Source of the DNA: a virus
Lineage: Duplodnaviria > Caudoviricetes
IMG/VR virus record: IMGVR_UViG_3300028412_000003
Length of the DNA: 64,000 nt
Strand: one strand, 5' to 3'
The position numbers were made by a program, and so were the translations under genes. Below, piece by piece: positions 49,199 through 64,000 of the stretch. Each line of letters starts with the position of its first letter. Positions within the stretch are counted from its first letter, which is position 1. The notes under the pieces are model-generated. The model searched no databases and was not told the origin of the DNA. It saw only the letters and a list, made by a program, of their open reading frames with translations.

Positions 49199-49285
49199 TG
49201 GTGCCCGAGGAGGGACTTGAACCCCCACTCTTGTTACAGAAACAGAATTTGAACCTGCCGCGTCTACCAATTCCACCACTCGGGC
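49199..49285 (-). tRNA. tRNA-Leu(CAA)
   Basis: GCCCGAG acceptor, GGAATTGGTAGAC D arm, GCAGG-TTCAAAT-TCTGT anticodon arm, long variable arm, GGTTCAAGTCC, encoded CCA. Confidence 0.93.
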
Positions 49286-50104: not shown

Positions 50105-50133
50105 ATTATAATGCTTGACCATTGCATTGTCAA
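50105..50133 (-). promoter_or_regulatory. Perfect sigma70 promoter TTGACA-N17-TATAAT
   Basis: Consensus match upstream of the HNH-tRNA-ligase unit; overlapped by a 12-bp inverted repeat. Confidence 0.85.
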
Positions 50134-50210: not shown

Positions 50211-51491
50211 CTACAACTGTAAGAAAATAAAGAACCCAATTGCCGCTAATAGGGCTGCTACGCCCACTCCGATCAATATTTTGTTCTTTTCAAACGAAAA
50301 TCCAGATGATGTTTTATATTCTTCTTCTGGCATATTAATCGGTATTTCTTCTTTAGGTACATCTTGTATAGGTACTTCTGTTTCGTATAATAATTTTGAT
50401 GCATCTAAAAATCTATTGTTATGGTCTTTTCCGCCTGTGTCTACTGTTTGTGTTGTTCCATTAGTTAGAAACGATCCAACTACTTCCCTAACATCGTCTA
50501 GTGTGTTCATTTGCGATGTTCGTGTTTCAAGCCATGCTGCTAGAACTCCAGCTACGTGTGGACAAGCCATACTTGTTCCACTTAATACTGCCTTTGTTTC
50601 ACCCGGCCAAGTTGATATAATACCAACTCCTGGCGCACTAATTTCAATATCTTTACTGTAATTACTAAAAGGAGCAATTTTCTTTCTATTGTCTGTTGCT
50701 CCAACAGTGATAACATTTGGTGCTTCGGCTGGAACAATTTCAGTTATGCTATCAAGATGTTTTCCTTCGTTACCAGCTGCTGCAATAACTATTGCACCAC
50801 TGTTAACAAGATAGGTTACTGCTTCTGTTATAGGATTAAATTTCTTTTGTACAGCTGATACTGAAAAATTAACCACAGCAGGTTTACCTGCTCGTTGAGT
50901 TCTGCGATGATTGACTATAGCACCAATCCCGTCTACTATTTGAGAAATAGTACCACTTCCGTCAACCTCTAATACTTTAACTGCATAAAGAGTAGCATTA
51001 TGAGCAATACCATATTCGGAAGAACATATAGTTCCCGCTACATGAGTTCCGTGCCCGTTGTCATCTTCCCAAGGATGTGATCCAACAGCATTAACTTTAG
51101 GTAGAGTAGAGTGTTGTGCAACCCCTGTATCTACAACGTACACGTCGACTCCTGCACCTTTATACTTATGTGCACCTGTTACGTTAATCGCGCTTAAAGC
51201 TGCGGTTGCGCTTGATACTCCTACGGTTCCTTGCACTGTTTTCCCTAGACCCCAGTCTAAGTTATCTGCATTTAATCCTACTGTTTCTTCTCCATCCGAA
51301 ATACCTTTAATGTCTTCGTCAGAATATTCAGTTACAGGAACGCCACCTAGCTTGTCTATTTTGGAATCAAAATAGACTAGTGTTTTCATAAAGTCATGTT
51401 GCCGAATATTCTTTGCACCATTTTCTAAAAGAGTTTCACTAGCCGATTTGAAATTTTCTTCGTTCTTTAATCCTGCTATATATTGTTTCAT
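50211..51491 (-). CDS. Subtilisin-like S8 serine protease with C-terminal membrane anchor
   Basis: Catalytic VVDTG, NGHGTHVAG, GTSMACPHVAG; oxyanion AAGN; C-terminal TM ILIGVGVAALLAAIGFFIFL; start MKQY is 5 nt after GATAAATA. Confidence 0.9.
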   Translation of the reverse strand: MKQYIAGLKNEENFKSASETLLENGAKNIRQHDFMKTLVYFDSKIDKLGGVPVTEYSDEDIKGISDGEETVGLNADNLDWGLGKTVQGTVGVSSATAALSAINVTGAHKYKGAGVDVYVVDTGVAQHSTLPKVNAVGSHPWEDDNGHGTHVAGTICSSEYGIAHNATLYAVKVLEVDGSGTISQIVDGIGAIVNHRRTQRAGKPAVVNFSVSAVQKKFNPITEAVTYLVNSGAIVIAAAGNEGKHLDSITEIVPAEAPNVITVGATDNRKKIAPFSNYSKDIEISAPGVGIISTWPGETKAVLSGTSMACPHVAGVLAAWLETRTSQMNTLDDVREVVGSFLTNGTTQTVDTGGKDHNNRFLDASKLLYETEVPIQDVPKEEIPINMPEEEYKTSSGFSFEKNKILIGVGVAALLAAIGFFIFLQL

Positions 51492-51496
51492 ACGCA

Positions 51497-51504
51497 TATT
51501 TATC
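51497..51504 (-). promoter_or_regulatory. Late promoter GATAAATA, leaderless (TGCGT-ATG)
   Basis: 5 nt before the ATG at 51491. Confidence 0.6.
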
Positions 51505-51515
51505 CTTCAGTCAAG

Positions 51516-51542
51516 AGAAAAGGACCAAAAAGGTCCTTTTCT
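51516..51542 (-). terminator. Rho-independent terminator of the hfa-like operon
   Basis: AGAAAAGGACC-TTTTT-GGTCCTTTTCT 11-bp stem with U-rich 3' arm. Confidence 0.75.
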
Positions 51543-51557: not shown

Positions 51558-52436
51558 TTAGTCGTTGAACTTATTAGTCTGGCTAACACCAGTTGACGAA
51601 CCAACTGCGCTTACGCTCTGACTAAAGTTACGACCAACTACGTTAACCTGTAGCCCAGATGCTGCCACCGGACCAAAGTTAGCAGAACCAACACCAAGAA
51701 CAGCGTTGTTCTGTGTGCCGTCGGTGTCACGGTTAAGTTGAGTTACACCAACTGATGCACCAGAAGCACCAACAGTCTGTGTTCCCTTACCAACGAGCAG
51801 GTTAATCTGTGTACCAGATGCTGCCACCGGAGCAAGATTTACAGCAACAACACCAGCAGTGATGTTAGTCTGGTCATCTTCACCAAAGTTTTGCTTGTTT
51901 GTCTGTGTGACAAACGAACCAGCACCACCAGCACTTACGCTCTGGGAAGCCTTACCAACAAGCAAGTTACCCTGCAAGCCAGATGCTGCAACTGGTGCAG
52001 TATTAAGTGCTCCAACAAGAACGGTAACATTGGTCTGATCATCGTCCGAGTCTACGTTCTTCTGATCAACCGATGCCTGAGCACCAAATGCACCAACGCT
52101 CTGGGAAGCCTTACCAACAAGCAAGTTACCCTGTGCACCAACTGCTGCAACTGGTGCAACATTCAATGCTCCAACAAGAGCTGCAACATTGGTCTGGTCA
52201 TCGTCACCGTCAACGTTCTTCTGATCAACGCTTGCAATAGCGCCAACGCCAGTAACATCCTGAGATGCCTTCTGTGCGAATGCAGTACCCTGCACGCCAG
52301 TTGCAGCTACAAAACCAGTGTTAAGCGATACAACACCAAGAGATGCATTGTTCTGGTCCTGTGCATTTGCAGCGCCTGCACCAAGGCCGATGACCAGTGC
52401 GAGAGCCGCGGTAGTTGAAAGAAATGTATTCTTCAT
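51558..52436 (-). CDS. Secreted Q/N-rich repeat protein, HfaD/curlin-like (putative amyloid or beta-solenoid subunit)
   Basis: Sec signal ending AANA; five ~53-aa repeats Q.N...N..PVAA.G.Q.N...SQ.V.A.G...V.Q.N. Confidence 0.65.
   Translation of the reverse strand: MKNTFLSTTAALALVIGLGAGAANAQDQNNASLGVVSLNTGFVAATGVQGTAFAQKASQDVTGVGAIASVDQKNVDGDDDQTNVAALVGALNVAPVAAVGAQGNLLVGKASQSVGAFGAQASVDQKNVDSDDDQTNVTVLVGALNTAPVAASGLQGNLLVGKASQSVSAGGAGSFVTQTNKQNFGEDDQTNITAGVVAVNLAPVAASGTQINLLVGKGTQTVGASGASVGVTQLNRDTDGTQNNAVLGVGSANFGPVAASGLQVNVVGRNFSQSVSAVGSSTGVSQTNKFND
51937..52133. repeat. 38-bp exact direct repeat (51937-51974 and 52096-52133) inside the HfaD-like gene
   Basis: ACGCTCTGGGAAGCCTTACCAACAAGCAAGTTACCCTG occurs twice, 159 bp (53 codons) apart. 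Confidence 0.9.
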
Positions 52437-52459
52437 ATTTTAGTTCTCCTATTTAAAGA

Positions 52460-53332
52460 TTACCGGTCAATCCGGCTATTGCTTGCAGAACGGGATTGTG
52501 CTGCTTGCTCAATTTTACGCTCAGTGTAAACCTTTTCGAGTTCGGCAGTTTCACTGGCGTCCATAACGTCGTCAACGTTATCAATCATAGTACGACACTT
52601 AGAAAAATCATCCTTATAAAGATCAGACAATAGTTCAAATGCCGCAAGTTTTAGCATGTTTCGCGTTGCAAACCCTACTGCTTCGCGCTGTTGTTCACCA
52701 ATATTCATAGTGACAAGCGTTTCTCCAAAGAATCGTCCAATGCCCATACCATAATCATAAGCGACAATTTGCTTATCAAGTGATGCAGAAGCAACGATCT
52801 TAGAATTCATTGTGTTGGTTAGGAAGATATCCATACCAACTGCCATCCGATACTGTCGTGCCTTAGCACCAATACCTGCAATGCTTACTTCAAATCCGCC
52901 ACCTGGAATAAAGTCCAGCGTGTTAATAGAACCAGTTGCGTGAGCATCGGATCCTACCCAACCAAGTGTACGACCAACCTTCATCTCAAGTTCCATCACC
53001 TTGGTGTTACGACGGTTAACAACCGAATTAGGTTGTGCCTTAACAAAAGACGCCTGAAGGATATCACCAGCAGCTTGGGTCATGTAATAACCATTACCCT
53101 CTGCACTAAACTTACCAGTCGAATCTTCAATTTCTCCAACAGCAAGATTAAAGTTTGCTCGTCCAGCAAGTTCTGTATTCAAACAAGCAAGTGCTTCGTC
53201 GTATACAGTTTTAACATCTACAACAGGAGGTGGACCCTGAATAAGATTCATGTTTTCACCTGGGGGAGTCATAGCAGTACATGCACCAAGTGATAGTGCA
53301 ATAGTAGTGGTTGCGAGTAGCTTTTTAATCAT
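52460..53332 (-). CDS. hfaB: CsgG/HfaB-family outer-membrane secretion lipoprotein
   Basis: Lipobox LGA-C; EALACL...LAVGEIEDSTGK...MTQAA...GSINTLDF...Y.M.VGMDIFLTN...KQIV...G.FF...EAVGFA.R matches the CsgG/HfaB layout. Confidence 0.8.
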   Translation of the reverse strand: MIKKLLATTTIALSLGACTAMTPPGENMNLIQGPPPVVDVKTVYDEALACLNTELAGRANFNLAVGEIEDSTGKFSAEGNGYYMTQAAGDILQASFVKAQPNSVVNRRNTKVMELEMKVGRTLGWVGSDAHATGSINTLDFIPGGGFEVSIAGIGAKARQYRMAVGMDIFLTNTMNSKIVASASLDKQIVAYDYGMGIGRFFGETLVTMNIGEQQREAVGFATRNMLKLAAFELLSDLYKDDFSKCRTMIDNVDDVMDASETAELEKVYTERKIEQAAQSRSASNSRIDR

Positions 53333-53342
53333 TTGTAACTCC

Positions 53343-53846
53343 TCAGTCAGACTTAACGGCGGAGCCGAAAGCATTATTAGTGGTTACGGGTGAATCCTTG
53401 TAATTCTGCGTAGCAGAACCATTTACTGCACCACTATTAGTAGAGCCGGATCCGGAGGTATTATCTTGGCTACCAACGTTAGCTGAACTGTCATCACCAA
53501 CATTAACTGTTTGAGAATTTGACTGATCGATAACTTCTTGCGAGCCAATAGTATTGACTTCGTTCTTGTTGGTAAATTCTTCAAATGCAGAACAGCCGCC
53601 TGCCTTACCACCTTCGCCAGCTTCACAAATAATGCTTTGTGTAGAAGTAGAAGTAGAATTTACAGAAGTTCCAAATCCACGACTTTCACGCATGTCAATA
53701 ATGACAGCTTGATCGCGTAGATCATAAAACCCCTTAAAGGTATAGTTGCAGTCCCAATCACAGGATGGCTGACTTTGTTGAGCCATAACTGGCATTGCAA
53801 ACCCAACCATACCGGCAAATAGTGCTGCGCCTAGTATTGTTTTCAT
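53343..53846 (-). CDS. Secreted S/T/N-rich protein, HfaA-like
   Basis: Sec signal (…AMPVMA-QQ); NTIGSQEV...NSQTVNV...Q.N.SG low-complexity tail; first gene before the hfaB-like gene. Confidence 0.5.
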   Translation of the reverse strand: MKTILGAALFAGMVGFAMPVMAQQSQPSCDWDCNYTFKGFYDLRDQAVIIDMRESRGFGTSVNSTSTSTQSIICEAGEGGKAGGCSAFEEFTNKNEVNTIGSQEVIDQSNSQTVNVGDDSSANVGSQDNTSGSGSTNSGAVNGSATQNYKDSPVTTNNAFGSAVKSD

Positions 53847-53942
53847 ATTGCATTCTCCTTGCAAATTTTAGAAGACTGTTGCCAGCCTGTGTTGCACCTT
53901 ACAACACTTACCTAACGAATTTTAAGTTTTATATGTAAATGT

Positions 53943-53971
53943 ATATTACTATAGTAACAGTGGTTTGTCAA
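53943..53971 (-). promoter_or_regulatory. sigma70-type promoter TTGACA-N17-TAATAT for the hfa-like operon
   Basis: Direct match. Confidence 0.75.
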
Positions 53972-53986
53972 TTGTTATTTTAATTT

Positions 53987-54877
53987 TTATTGATGTTTTT
54001 TAACAAGCTCTTCTAGTTCACGGACGAGTCTGCTATGTTTGTCTTTCTCTACCATTGCTTCTTTTAGAGAACCATAATGCATCTCCATGCACTCAATCAA
54101 AATCTTTTTGATTTCATCTTCGTTTGGTCTTTCTGGAAGAGAGCTATTTGCATAAAGAGTTTCAAGAGATTTTTCTTTCTCTTCAAACCATTCGTTGATT
54201 CGATCTAAACTCCATTCCCCCCTGCGAATTGATTTATAAACTTCAGAATCTCGATCAAGTCTTAAATCCCCAGTTGACATAATCTGTTCAGCTTCGAGTA
54301 ACAACCGAACAACATGATACGCAAATTTAACATCAAATCCAAATTTATCAATCGATATTTGTCTTTTAGGATTTGATCGATTTGCACCCTTATTGATTTT
54401 AGACATTTGAGACATTGCATATCCCCGGAACTTATAATAAGATCCTTTGTGTAGAAATTTCTTTCTATTAGAACGAATGTGTTCATAAATTGCGGTAGAA
54501 TGCAAAACACAACGTCTTGGAAGAAAAAGATTATCTACCATGTTAGGATTGTTTTCCATAGCAAGTTGAACAAATTTAACAATAGAAAATATTGTTAAAT
54601 CATATTCTTTCTTTGAACTTTTGTCTTCAATGTGATGTTGCTGAAATTGATCAAACCTTTGAACTTGTTGTCCAAATCCTGTAATCTCACCAGATAGATG
54701 GGGAAATACTAAATCTTTAGGTGGCATACAAAATCCAATAATATCCATGTCGGATGAATCATTACTTGCACCATATGCAACAGAACCAGTCCAACCTTCA
54801 AACATAGTATTATTAGGTAACCATGCAGGTGGATTGATCAATCCTAATCCGTCAAGTCTATTAATTACACTAGCCAT
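53987..54877 (-). CDS. Pol-beta-superfamily nucleotidyltransferase (RlaP/YcgL-like)
   Basis: GSVAYG..ND.SDMD motif, NPNMVD.LF, FRGYA..Q, KFAYH.VRLL. Confidence 0.85.
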   Translation of the reverse strand: MASVINRLDGLGLINPPAWLPNNTMFEGWTGSVAYGASNDSSDMDIIGFCMPPKDLVFPHLSGEITGFGQQVQRFDQFQQHHIEDKSSKKEYDLTIFSIVKFVQLAMENNPNMVDNLFLPRRCVLHSTAIYEHIRSNRKKFLHKGSYYKFRGYAMSQMSKINKGANRSNPKRQISIDKFGFDVKFAYHVVRLLLEAEQIMSTGDLRLDRDSEVYKSIRRGEWSLDRINEWFEEKEKSLETLYANSSLPERPNEDEIKKILIECMEMHYGSLKEAMVEKDKHSRLVRELEELVKKHQ

Positions 54878-54904: not shown

Positions 54905-54932
54905 ATTATACTACATTATCAAAGGTTGTCAA
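54905..54932 (-). promoter_or_regulatory. sigma70-type promoter TTGACA-N16-TATAAT
   Basis: Match upstream of the nucleotidyltransferase. Confidence 0.7.
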
Positions 54933-61929: not shown

Positions 61930-62006
61930 TGGTGTCTCCGGCAGGACTTGAACCTGCAACCTTTGCCTTCGGAGGGCAATGCTCTATCCAGTTGAGCTAC
62001 GAGGAC
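61930..62006 (-). tRNA. tRNA-Arg(CCG)
   Basis: TAGCTCAACTGGATAGAGC D arm, TTGCC-CTCCGAA-GGCAA anticodon arm, GGTTCAAGTCC, encoded CCA; acceptor has a C4:A69 mismatch. Confidence 0.9.
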
Positions 62007-62887: not shown

Positions 62888-62973
62888 TGGTCCGGGCTGG
62901 GGGACTCGAACCCCCACAGCACATGGCCTTGAGATTTTAAGTCTCATGCGTCTACCAATTCCGCCAAGCCCAG
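62888..62973 (-). tRNA. tRNA-Leu(TAA)
   Basis: CTGGGCT/AGCCCGG acceptor, GGAATTGGTAGAC, TGAGA-CTTAAAA-TCTCA anticodon arm, long variable arm, GGTTCGAGTCC, encoded CCA. Confidence 0.93.
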
Positions 62974-63405: not shown

Positions 63406-63964
63406 TGACTGCCCATTTTAATATAAAATGTGTCTTTTTAGGAGAATCATTTTTATAGAGTCGATCTATATATTTTTCAAATGAATATCTTCTATTGTTT
63501 AAAAACCAAGATCGATCCCCGTTAGCAAGTTCAACAGCTGGTCCATCTGTTCTATGCTTTTTGCCATCTAAATACCAATAACGGTCTCCGTTTGGGTATT
63601 CAATGGCTGGTCCATCTGTTCTGTGAAGTTCGTTATTTTGTAACCAACGACGTTCTCCATCTGGATATTCAATAGCCGGTCCATCTGTTCTGTGAAGTTG
63701 GTTGTTTTGAAACCAGTGACGAGTTCCATTTAGGTATTCAGCGGCTGGTCCATCTGTTCTATGCTTTTTTTCATTCTGTAACCAAAAACATGTTCCATTT
63801 GCGTATTCAATTGCTGGTCCATCCGTTCTGTGATGTTGATTATTTTGAAACCAGTGACGAGTTCCATCAGCAAATTCAGCGGCTGGTCCATCTGTTCTGT
63901 GAAGCTCGTCATCTTGGAACCAACGACGATTTCCATTTTTATCTATCTCTAATCCATTTTTCAT
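63362..63964 (-). CDS. MORN-variant (HRTDGPA) repeat protein
   Basis: Six 23-aa repeats HRTDGPA.EY.NG.R.W.QN. Confidence 0.85.
   Translation of the reverse strand: MKNGLEIDKNGNRRWFQDDELHRTDGPAAEFADGTRHWFQNNQHHRTDGPAIEYANGTCFWLQNEKKHRTDGPAAEYLNGTRHWFQNNQLHRTDGPAIEYPDGERRWLQNNELHRTDGPAIEYPNGDRYWYLDGKKHRTDGPAVELANGDRSWFLNNRRYSFEKYIDRLYKNDSPKKTHFILKWAVNEKWTCDRRRWTGR
63500..63925. repeat. Six tandem 69-bp coding repeats
   Basis: Recurrent GCTGGTCCATC(T/C)GTTCT(G/A)TG at 69-bp spacing; boundaries approximate. Confidence 0.85.
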
Positions 63965-64000
63965 CGACTACTCCATTTTAAGATGAACAATGTCTTTTTA
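63961..64000 (-). CDS. 3' end of a further paralog (…KKTLFILKWSSR*)
   Basis: Translated by hand; truncated by the window edge. Confidence 0.6.
   Translation of the reverse strand, partial: KKTLFILKWSSR

Follow-up and report, generated by a model that had tools for sequence, protein, structure and literature searches.

The systems most similar to the locus analyzed here are the HfaA-HfaB-HfaD proteins of Caulobacter crescentus, curli, and the channel genes carried by some aquatic phages. In Caulobacter, HfaB is required for the surface placement of HfaA and HfaD, both of which form sodium dodecyl sulfate (SDS)-resistant multimers (PMC6707917; bioRxiv 10.1101/2022.07.20.500906). Pelagimyophages of the HTVC008M type and the methylophage Melnitz encode csgG and csgF in a small operon with no recognizable csgA or csgB, and the roles proposed for these genes comprise permeability, lysis timing, and a 'sibling capture' fibre (PMC7029224, PMC9004378). 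Because these phages already carry csgG/csgF, a phage-borne type VIII channel is not new in kind; phage-encoded CsgG has been a puzzle since 2020, as an exported subunit to go with it could not be pointed out (PMC7029224, PMC9004378). Here, we describe a three-gene operon in a 64,000-nucleotide stretch of viral DNA (the window), which forms part of the 76,048-bp IMG/VR record IMGVR_UViG_3300028412_000003. Three co-oriented minus-strand genes, designated A, B, and D, lie within positions 51558-53971. An earlier interpretation of this DNA from its letters alone (the sequence-only reading) had proposed an hfaABD-like operon, and had mentioned csgG/csgF-like genes in some marine myophages without an evident subunit, which the cited papers bear out.

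We consider that the locus probably encodes a phage-carried type VIII-like secretion module of the curli/holdfast-anchor type, which would be expressed in an infected Gram-negative host; on the evidence from sequences and structural models, we give this reading a probability of about 0.6. New here are an Hfa-type set with evident cargo, a phage-restricted D family, and the recurrence of such a set in two unrelated jumbo-phage groups. Since the cassette brings an HfaA-like protein and a modelled curli-like solenoid as candidate cargo, the idea that phages have their hosts build surface fibres becomes directly testable.

Comparison with described systems

Like Caulobacter crescentus HfaA-HfaB-HfaD (with HfaE), the locus encodes a CsgG-family lipoprotein in the middle of three genes of the same order and similar sizes, preceded by a small Sec-exported protein with an AIG(N/S)...G..N motif and followed by a secreted beta-rich repeat protein. 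Unlike the Caulobacter system, it is carried by a phage, with no holdfast polysaccharide genes or HfaE identified; its B protein lies far under the HfaB cut-off and belongs to another clade, and its D protein lacks similarity to HfaD. With curli the locus shares a match of B to CsgG; in addition, D is predicted to be a Q/N-rich beta-solenoid of five repeats, and the CsgA fibril is the structure that it matches best. It departs from curli in its Hfa-type gene order and A partner, in the residues of the channel constriction loop, and in the absence of a Curlin_rpt or CsgF match from the 76-kb record; moreover, the D repeat comprises 53 amino acids (aa) and two rungs, whereas that of CsgA is about 22 aa long.

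The source of the window resembles the pelagimyophages and Melnitz in being a T4-like aquatic myophage whose variable region includes a gene for a type VIII channel. Whereas those phages encode CsgF and no recognizable subunit, the 76-kb record holds no CsgF match but encodes an HfaA-like protein together with a solenoid repeat protein. The Caulobacter phages CcrColossus and CcrPW and the Brevundimonas jumbo phages likewise carry a triplet of secreted protein, CsgG/HfaB protein, and secreted repeat protein; unlike the myovirus of the window, these are siphoviruses of the Dolichocephalovirinae, and their B proteins fall in the HfaB group.

Operon organization and regulatory elements

Including its promoter and hairpin, the unit extends from 53971 to 51516 on the minus strand. 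A sigma70-like promoter (TTGACA-17-TAATAT; 53943-53971) lies about 95 nucleotides (nt) upstream of gene A (53343-53846; 167 aa), which starts with the ATG at 53846 behind AAGGAGA; the TTG at 53864, another possible start, probably lies too far upstream. Gene B (52460-53332; 290 aa, as in the public gene call) begins with an ATG at 53332, 10 nt past the stop codon of A, with GAGGAG 6 nt upstream of it, and gene D (51558-52436; 292 aa) begins at 52436, 23 nt past the stop codon of B, with AGGAGA upstream. The three genes are translationally coupled and form a tight operon. A terminator-like hairpin with an 11-bp stem and a 5-nt loop (51516-51542, minus strand) follows 16 nt past the D stop codon. 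Its folding is favorable (-17.7 kcal/mol, z score -4.1), the U-tract behind it is weak, and a consensus terminator scan did not report it, so that its role as a terminator is only plausible. The self-contained unit described in the sequence-only reading is confirmed: the sigma70-like promoter and the three genes are retained, and the terminator is kept at that lower strength.

Sites of the form TTGACA-N16-18-TANNNT are enriched in the window: 16 are present against 4.7 expected, none of 100 shuffled sequences reaches this number, and 12 of the 16 lie on the coding strand. This enrichment suggests that a large gene set is read by the host polymerase. When the sequence upstream of gene A was read by eye, no T4-type late promoter motif was seen. 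Two further sites are perfect 12/12 sigma70 consensus promoters (TTGACA … TATAAT), one before an HNH gene (50105-50133, minus strand) and one before the RlaP gene (54905-54932, minus strand).

Gene B encodes a CsgG/HfaB-family lipoprotein

The N-terminus of B, MIKKLLATTTIALSLGAC (…LSLGAC), is a lipoprotein signal with a lipobox, the cysteine of which is invariant across the alignment of B homologues. Residues 77-254 match positions 12-203 of the 210 in the Pfam CsgG profile (PF03783) with 35.2 bits, above the gathering cut-off of 20.8, and a search of the whole record agrees. The NCBIfam HfaB model (NF037935) is matched with an E value of 6.6e-25 and 87.8 bits, which does not reach its equivalog cut-off of 300. 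A profile of 17 B homologues matches the solved Escherichia coli CsgG structures (3x2r, 4uv3, 6si7) over 183 positions with an E value of 1.5e-9; the single B sequence alone gave no match against solved structures. B also matches phrog_20175. The sequence matches assign B to the CsgG/HfaB family, as the sequence-only reading had it, and not to the HfaB equivalogs; it would be an outer-membrane lipoprotein and is presumed to act as the secretion channel.

Homologues of B are abundant; some, in Acinetobacter and Sneathiella, carry the NCBI names 'CsgG/HfaB family' or 'HfaB protein'. The B protein of the window and seven other sequences form a clade with 99% support in a maximum-likelihood tree: four are encoded on phage-like contigs (L005, L113, L008, and L115) and three lack context (P0009, P0010, and P0011), P0010 being identical to the L115 protein. 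This phage clade is separate from those of Nitrospinota/Campylobacterota, Alphaproteobacteria, Desulfocapsaceae, Methylophilaceae, and Moraxellaceae, and a long branch lies between it and the group that true HfaB forms with the proteins of the Caulobacter and Brevundimonas phages. The tree was rejected as a means of naming the host, as the phage clade is without a resolved bacterial sister.

Gene A encodes an exported protein probably related to HfaA

The product of gene A carries a Sec signal, MKTILGAALFAGMVGFAMPVMA/QQ (…PVMA/QQ), as read from its sequence, contains four cysteines, and is rich in S, G, N, and T in its mature form (S 16%, G 11%, N 10%, T 9%), in keeping with the exported S/T/N-rich first protein described by the sequence-only reading. 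It has no NCBIfam or Pfam match. Of 82 related loci, 77 yielded an A-type gene in an iterative jackhmmer search started from the A protein of the window; two Desulfocapsaceae loci have this gene downstream of B instead. The family alignment comprises an N-terminal PSxDW..W.F….QA..IE…GG(F/Y) block and a later AIG(S/N)…I.I.G(D)xN.V block, and indicates a genuine family that widely adjoins CsgG/HfaB genes.

Profile comparison with true HfaA using hhalign gave a probability of 84% (E 7.5e-6) over 34 columns and of 80% (E 1.4e-5) over 28 columns, and the aligned part of HfaA is its C-terminal AIGN.LNVV..G..NTVIV block. Conversely, when a hidden Markov model (HMM) of the A family was run on the twelve loci that served as the true hfa reference, defined by a B protein exceeding the HfaB equivalog cut-off, the hfaA open reading frame directly upstream of hfaB was the sole match in nine, with E values of 2e-4 to 9e-3 in eight loci and 0.21 in one. 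Gene A is also placed directly upstream of the channel gene and encodes a small, Sec-exported protein, as hfaA does in the true loci. Taken at the profile level, A is a probable distant relative of HfaA.

Gene D encodes a repeat protein with a predicted beta-solenoid fold

The product of gene D starts with a Sec signal, MKNTFLSTTAALALVIGLGAGAANA/QD (…AANA/QD), as read from its sequence, and consists of five repeats that begin at residues 25, 78, 131, 186, and 239, with a period of 53-55 aa and the recurring motifs QTN, GxQGN, KASQSV, and QxN. Tandem Repeats Finder reports a period of 159 nt in the gene, and the secreted protein of five 53-aa repeats seen by the sequence-only reading is thereby confirmed. 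The structure model of D is a confident extended beta-solenoid in which each 53-aa repeat contributes two rungs, and its closest structural match is the CsgA fibril. A Foldseek search of this model against PDB, AFDB clusters, and BFVD returned nothing significant, with weak matches to phage tailspikes among those listed, and a structure search of the ESM Atlas gave template modelling (TM) scores of at most 0.26.

At the sequence level, D matches no family in Pfam, NCBIfam, or PHROG, and A likewise has no Pfam match; Curlin_rpt (PF07012) matched nothing in the 76-kb record at E ≤ 1. The HfaD model (NF037936), in which true HfaD scores an E value of 7e-108 as a control, did not match the D protein of the window at E ≤ 0.1, its L005 and L008 relatives at E ≤ 1, or anything in the 76-kb record at E ≤ 10. 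Similarly, hhalign gave a probability of 0.2% for D against true HfaD, and of at most 3% in all comparisons of D with HfaD, the Nitrospinota-type D, the Caulobacter-phage D, HfaA, and A. When the 53-aa repeat was turned into an HMM, this performed no better on 72 other D proteins than on shuffled sequences. A language-model neighbour cluster with Pfam HfaD scored 0.85 for D, which we treat as a lead only. Searching phage records with D by tblastn gave no match, and an exhaustive HMMER search with the D alignment over 1.84 billion representatives found 13 proteins only; for each member with usable context, the contig is phage-like and the D gene comes immediately behind an A-B pair.

Gene D is nevertheless found where hfaD is found in the true loci, directly downstream of the channel gene, and its product is likewise secreted and repeat-bearing. 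Based on the structural model, we regard D as a new family of secreted beta-solenoid repeat proteins with a predicted curli-like architecture, which occupies the HfaD position and stands outside the HfaD family; it is a candidate fibre or coat subunit. The resemblance to hfaABD put forward by the sequence-only reading therefore persists in the gene order, and in A, which shares the HfaA C-terminal motif at the profile level, but does not extend to B as an HfaB equivalog or to D as an HfaD protein. Its curli-type cargo is retained as a predicted curli-like solenoid, with no sequence relation of D to CsgA or FapC detected.

In the phage contigs most closely related to the window, the slot after D is occupied by a second, shorter secreted protein (247 aa; L005:7827-8570, plus strand, identical to P0139) with D-like repeats (…GPVTLTQRQTNIGVGSATQQ…) and a weak match to the D profile (E 4.8e-6). 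These relatives accordingly carry two candidate subunits.

Conservation and selection of the A-B-D arrangement

To place the operon in context, we compared 82 B homologues with their flanking genes, taken from bacterial genomes or assemblies and from related phage-like contigs. The upstream gene encodes 125-200 aa and the downstream gene usually 200-500 aa, in loci that range over Nitrospinota, Campylobacterota, Alpha-, Beta-, and Gammaproteobacteria and the related phage-like contigs. The true hfa reference loci show HfaA, HfaB, and then HfaD, where the flank is long enough, in the same order, which agrees with the gene order claimed in the sequence-only reading. The D-position proteins can be divided into several families that look unrelated to one another, and an (S/T)xA(I/V)GA motif is common to most of the families of downstream repeat proteins in the bacterial loci; a weak bridge to HfaD is found only in the Nitrospinota-type D (E 1e-4) and in gp243 of CcrColossus (E 1.5e-5). 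The triplet of HfaA-like protein, CsgG/HfaB protein, and repeat protein is thus a widespread bacterial module, well beyond the Caulobacterales. Bacterial triplets were seen in Nitrospinaceae, Campylobacterales, Acinetobacter, Sneathiella, Aureimonas, a Brucella plasmid, Methylophilaceae, and Desulfocapsaceae. To our knowledge, neither the bacteria with the homologues nearest to the window (Nitrospinaceae, Acinetobacter, and Methylophilaceae) nor the other triplet-bearing groups are known holdfast formers.

The A-B-D order is also present in at least four other related phage contigs, where it occurs in three neighbourhoods: between RlaP and HNH-ligase genes (the window, L005, and L113), between NADAR and TROVE/VWA genes (L008, a 200-kb contig), and between clamp loader and NT5C genes (L115). 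In the closest related phage contigs, a radical-SAM-like gene lies between RlaP and gene A. Single-protein scans of IMG/VR found no relatives, and a profile scan returned three loci, one of which was already known, the other two being high in guanine plus cytosine (G+C), located at contig ends, and bacterial- or prophage-looking.

The A, B, and D frames are intact in all phage contigs compared. With dS near saturation in most pairs, B has a ratio of nonsynonymous to synonymous substitution rates (dN/dS) of 0.13, A one of 0.25, and D one of 0.25-0.34; these comparisons indicate purifying selection on the three phage genes. Between the two closest phages, L005 and L113, the proteins are 91% (B), 73% (A), and 47% (D) identical, and the D gene would be either very fast-evolving or swapped between cassettes. 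Such a gradient from B through A to D is expected if D forms the exposed, outermost part, and points to diversifying pressure on D.

Related triplets in Caulobacter and Brevundimonas jumbo phages

When B was compared with phage records by tblastn, matches were obtained only in Caulobacter and Brevundimonas jumbo siphoviruses, at 27-28% identity, and in no pelagimyophage or methylophage record. The triplet is carried by the cultured Caulobacter jumbo phages CcrColossus (gp241-243; L003:3389-5753, followed by an annotated terminator) and CcrPW (gp250-252; L004:3305-5670) and by cultured Brevundimonas jumbo phages such as Domovoi (L002:3489-6018). In these phages, the CsgG/HfaB gene has on one side a gene for a secreted protein, rich in G/S/T/N and about 165 aa long, and on the other a gene for a secreted repeat protein, about 310-330 aa long. 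For the flanking genes, the annotation goes no further than hypothetical protein or putative lipoprotein, and the middle gene is already labelled CsgG-like; our literature search found no paper discussing these triplets. The triplet is thus not unique to the phage of the window, since CcrColossus, CcrPW, and the Brevundimonas phages have their own version, and in this respect the sequence-only reading, which saw a candidate for an undescribed system, goes too far.

The B proteins of these phages match the HfaB model with E values of 1e-61 to 1e-70 and form the sister group of true HfaB in the tree, and their A proteins join the A family of the window (93.7% by hhalign, and recovered by jackhmmer). 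The HfaD model matches the D protein of CcrColossus weakly (E 1.5e-5) and that of Domovoi not at all. Because their B proteins group with true HfaB, apart from the clade of the window, the triplet represents an independent acquisition in these phages, and on the sequence evidence it looks like one from a Caulobacterales hfa operon. CcrColossus and CcrPW offer an immediate experimental route, through a genetically tractable host with known Hfa biology.

Proposed function and alternative explanations

In the secretion-module reading, the host sigma70 polymerase would transcribe the operon, early in infection, and A, B, and D would all cross the inner membrane via Sec. Once lipidated, B would reach the outer membrane and may form an oligomeric channel there, as CsgG and HfaB do, and A and D would exit through this channel in a B-dependent manner. 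A, with its HfaA-like AIGxQ...GDxN motif, is expected to be largely disordered as a monomer, and D to be a solenoid whose ten rungs carry ladders of Q/N. Once exported, the two proteins may polymerize into a stable fibre, anchor, or coat, with the fastest-evolving component, D, outermost. For the phage, the most likely benefit, favored only weakly, would be a remodelling of the cell surface that blocks superinfection, for instance by masking, or alters adhesion or aggregation of the cells; interference with the host's own anchor is a further candidate. The aggregation, receptor masking, and deterrence of grazers put forward by the sequence-only reading are, like its early timing, conjectural. 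Beyond this, one might speculate that a freshwater jumbo-myophage lineage makes its host export a phage-specific functional amyloid, drawn from a new, fast-diversifying beta-solenoid family that travels only with the phage-clade HfaA/HfaB pair, that the resulting coat or fibre controls superinfection or cell-cell and particle attachment, and that the Caulobacter jumbo phages have converged on the same solution; this extended scenario is tentative, and we hold it to be less probable than its opposite. If true, surface-fibre conversion by type VIII-like modules would be a recurrent jumbo-phage strategy.

Several results weigh against the secretion-module reading. The link between A and HfaA is limited to about 30 aligned columns of low-complexity, biased sequence, and the AlphaFold2 model of A is unreliable, with a predicted local distance difference test (pLDDT) score of 50.6, too poor for a structure search; such a model is compatible with folding only upon assembly but is no proof thereof. 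CsgG is a nonameric 36-strand barrel with a constriction loop (Tyr/Asn/Phe in E. coli); the residues of this loop are not conserved in B, where the HMM alignment pairs the E. coli loop PYPASNF with another loop that contains G-N-G. None of the models or profiles for HfaD, curlin, or FapC is matched by D, and no CsgF match was found in the 76-kb record, which is estimated to represent about 21% of the genome.

The missing sequence link of D to HfaD or CsgA would sit well with a different role, in which B alone is an outer-membrane pore that alters permeability or lysis timing, and A and D are periplasmic accessories or unrelated exports. Buchholz et al. propose a pore role for phage CsgG(F) without subunits, as in Melnitz (PMC9004378), and Zaragoza-Solas et al. 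mention the uptake of larger molecules (PMC7029224). This explanation leaves the conserved partners unaccounted for: A and D are translationally coupled to B, all related phage contigs and almost all bacterial loci have them together with B, and D is a confidently modelled extended solenoid with a Sec signal. We therefore regard a pore acting by itself as unlikely, although it leads the alternatives. Close behind it in our ranking, and likewise improbable, is a recently captured host operon that travels as neutral cargo without a role in infection. The raised G+C content of the cassette (0.43 against about 0.34 in its flanks), its place in a variable region that also holds HNH and tRNA genes, and the many bacterial homologues speak for such a capture. 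A recent and neutral origin fits poorly, on the other hand, with a well-supported phage B clade of its own, spread over at least five diverged contigs and three neighbourhoods, with three intact frames whose dN/dS lies well below 1, with a D family found only in phage-like contigs, and with the independent acquisition by Caulobacter and Brevundimonas jumbo phages.

Two further possibilities rank far lower. D, and perhaps A, could be a fibre or decoration protein of the virion instead of the host surface, given that beta-solenoids are common in phage tailspikes, that weak tailspike matches were listed for the D model, and that tail-fibre-like genes lie 5-7 kb away. Yet D has a cleavable Sec signal, shares its operon with an outer-membrane lipoprotein, and lacks a significant BFVD or PHROGs match, and the operon is preceded by a sigma70-like promoter with no T4-type late motif seen by eye upstream of A, which makes a virion component very improbable. 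The least likely explanation, to which we assign hardly any weight, is bacterial DNA misjoined to a phage contig. The G+C step at the cassette could be read in this way; however, an independent ENA assembly contains the same locus with the same junctions and flanked by phage genes to either side, three studies of lake-water metagenomes contain most of the stretch, and relatives from other samples are syntenic (RlaP ... A-B-D ... HNH-ligase). With the phage gene content of the record, the recurrence of the locus in the independent assembly and in the three lake studies makes a chimeric assembly very unlikely. The secretion-module reading thus remains the one we prefer.

Source of the DNA and neighbouring genes

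Only positions 1-63659 of the window place on the viral record, positions 63660-64000 being N or off the contig; the record has a CheckV completeness of about 21%. The contig, a lake-water sequence, is a fragment of the genome of a jumbo T4-like myovirus. Its DNA polymerase is of the T4 type and is most closely related to those of 350-490-kb jumbo myoviruses, namely Sinorhizobium phage Phosso (50% identity), Atu_ph07, Vibrio phage 2.275.O, and Serratia phage BF, and the record also codes for a Lon/Clp-type protease, a TelA-like protein, and baseplate-like and tail-fibre-like proteins. A lytic lifestyle is plausible for a phage of this type. A blastn search of the locus DNA against 50,697 phage records gave no match.

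G+C is raised at the cassette (0.41-0.43) relative to most of the window (0.32-0.36), and the region around the cassette is variable and includes HNH and tRNA genes. A tRNA Leu-CAA gene (49199-49285, minus strand) lies between the DNA ligase and HNH genes and adjoins this region; two other phage tRNA genes, Arg-CCG (61930-62006) and Leu-TAA (62888-62973), are located on the same strand. Directly upstream of the cassette, an RlaP-type RNA-repair nucleotidyltransferase (PF10127, phrog_388) is encoded at 53987-54877 on the minus strand, and the same neighbour is found in related phage contigs.

Directly past the hairpin, and within the raised-G+C stretch, lies a gene for a subtilisin-family (S8) protease (50211-51497, minus strand). 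We rejected this protease as a fourth member of the module, as it is located beyond the hairpin, has no N-terminal signal peptide, and is replaced by another gene in the closest relatives. It ends in a C-terminal hydrophobic anchor (…ILIGVGVAALLAAIGFFIFLQL), matches phrog_3677, 'protease', with an E value of 1.5e-60, and is mycosin-like according to NCBIfam.

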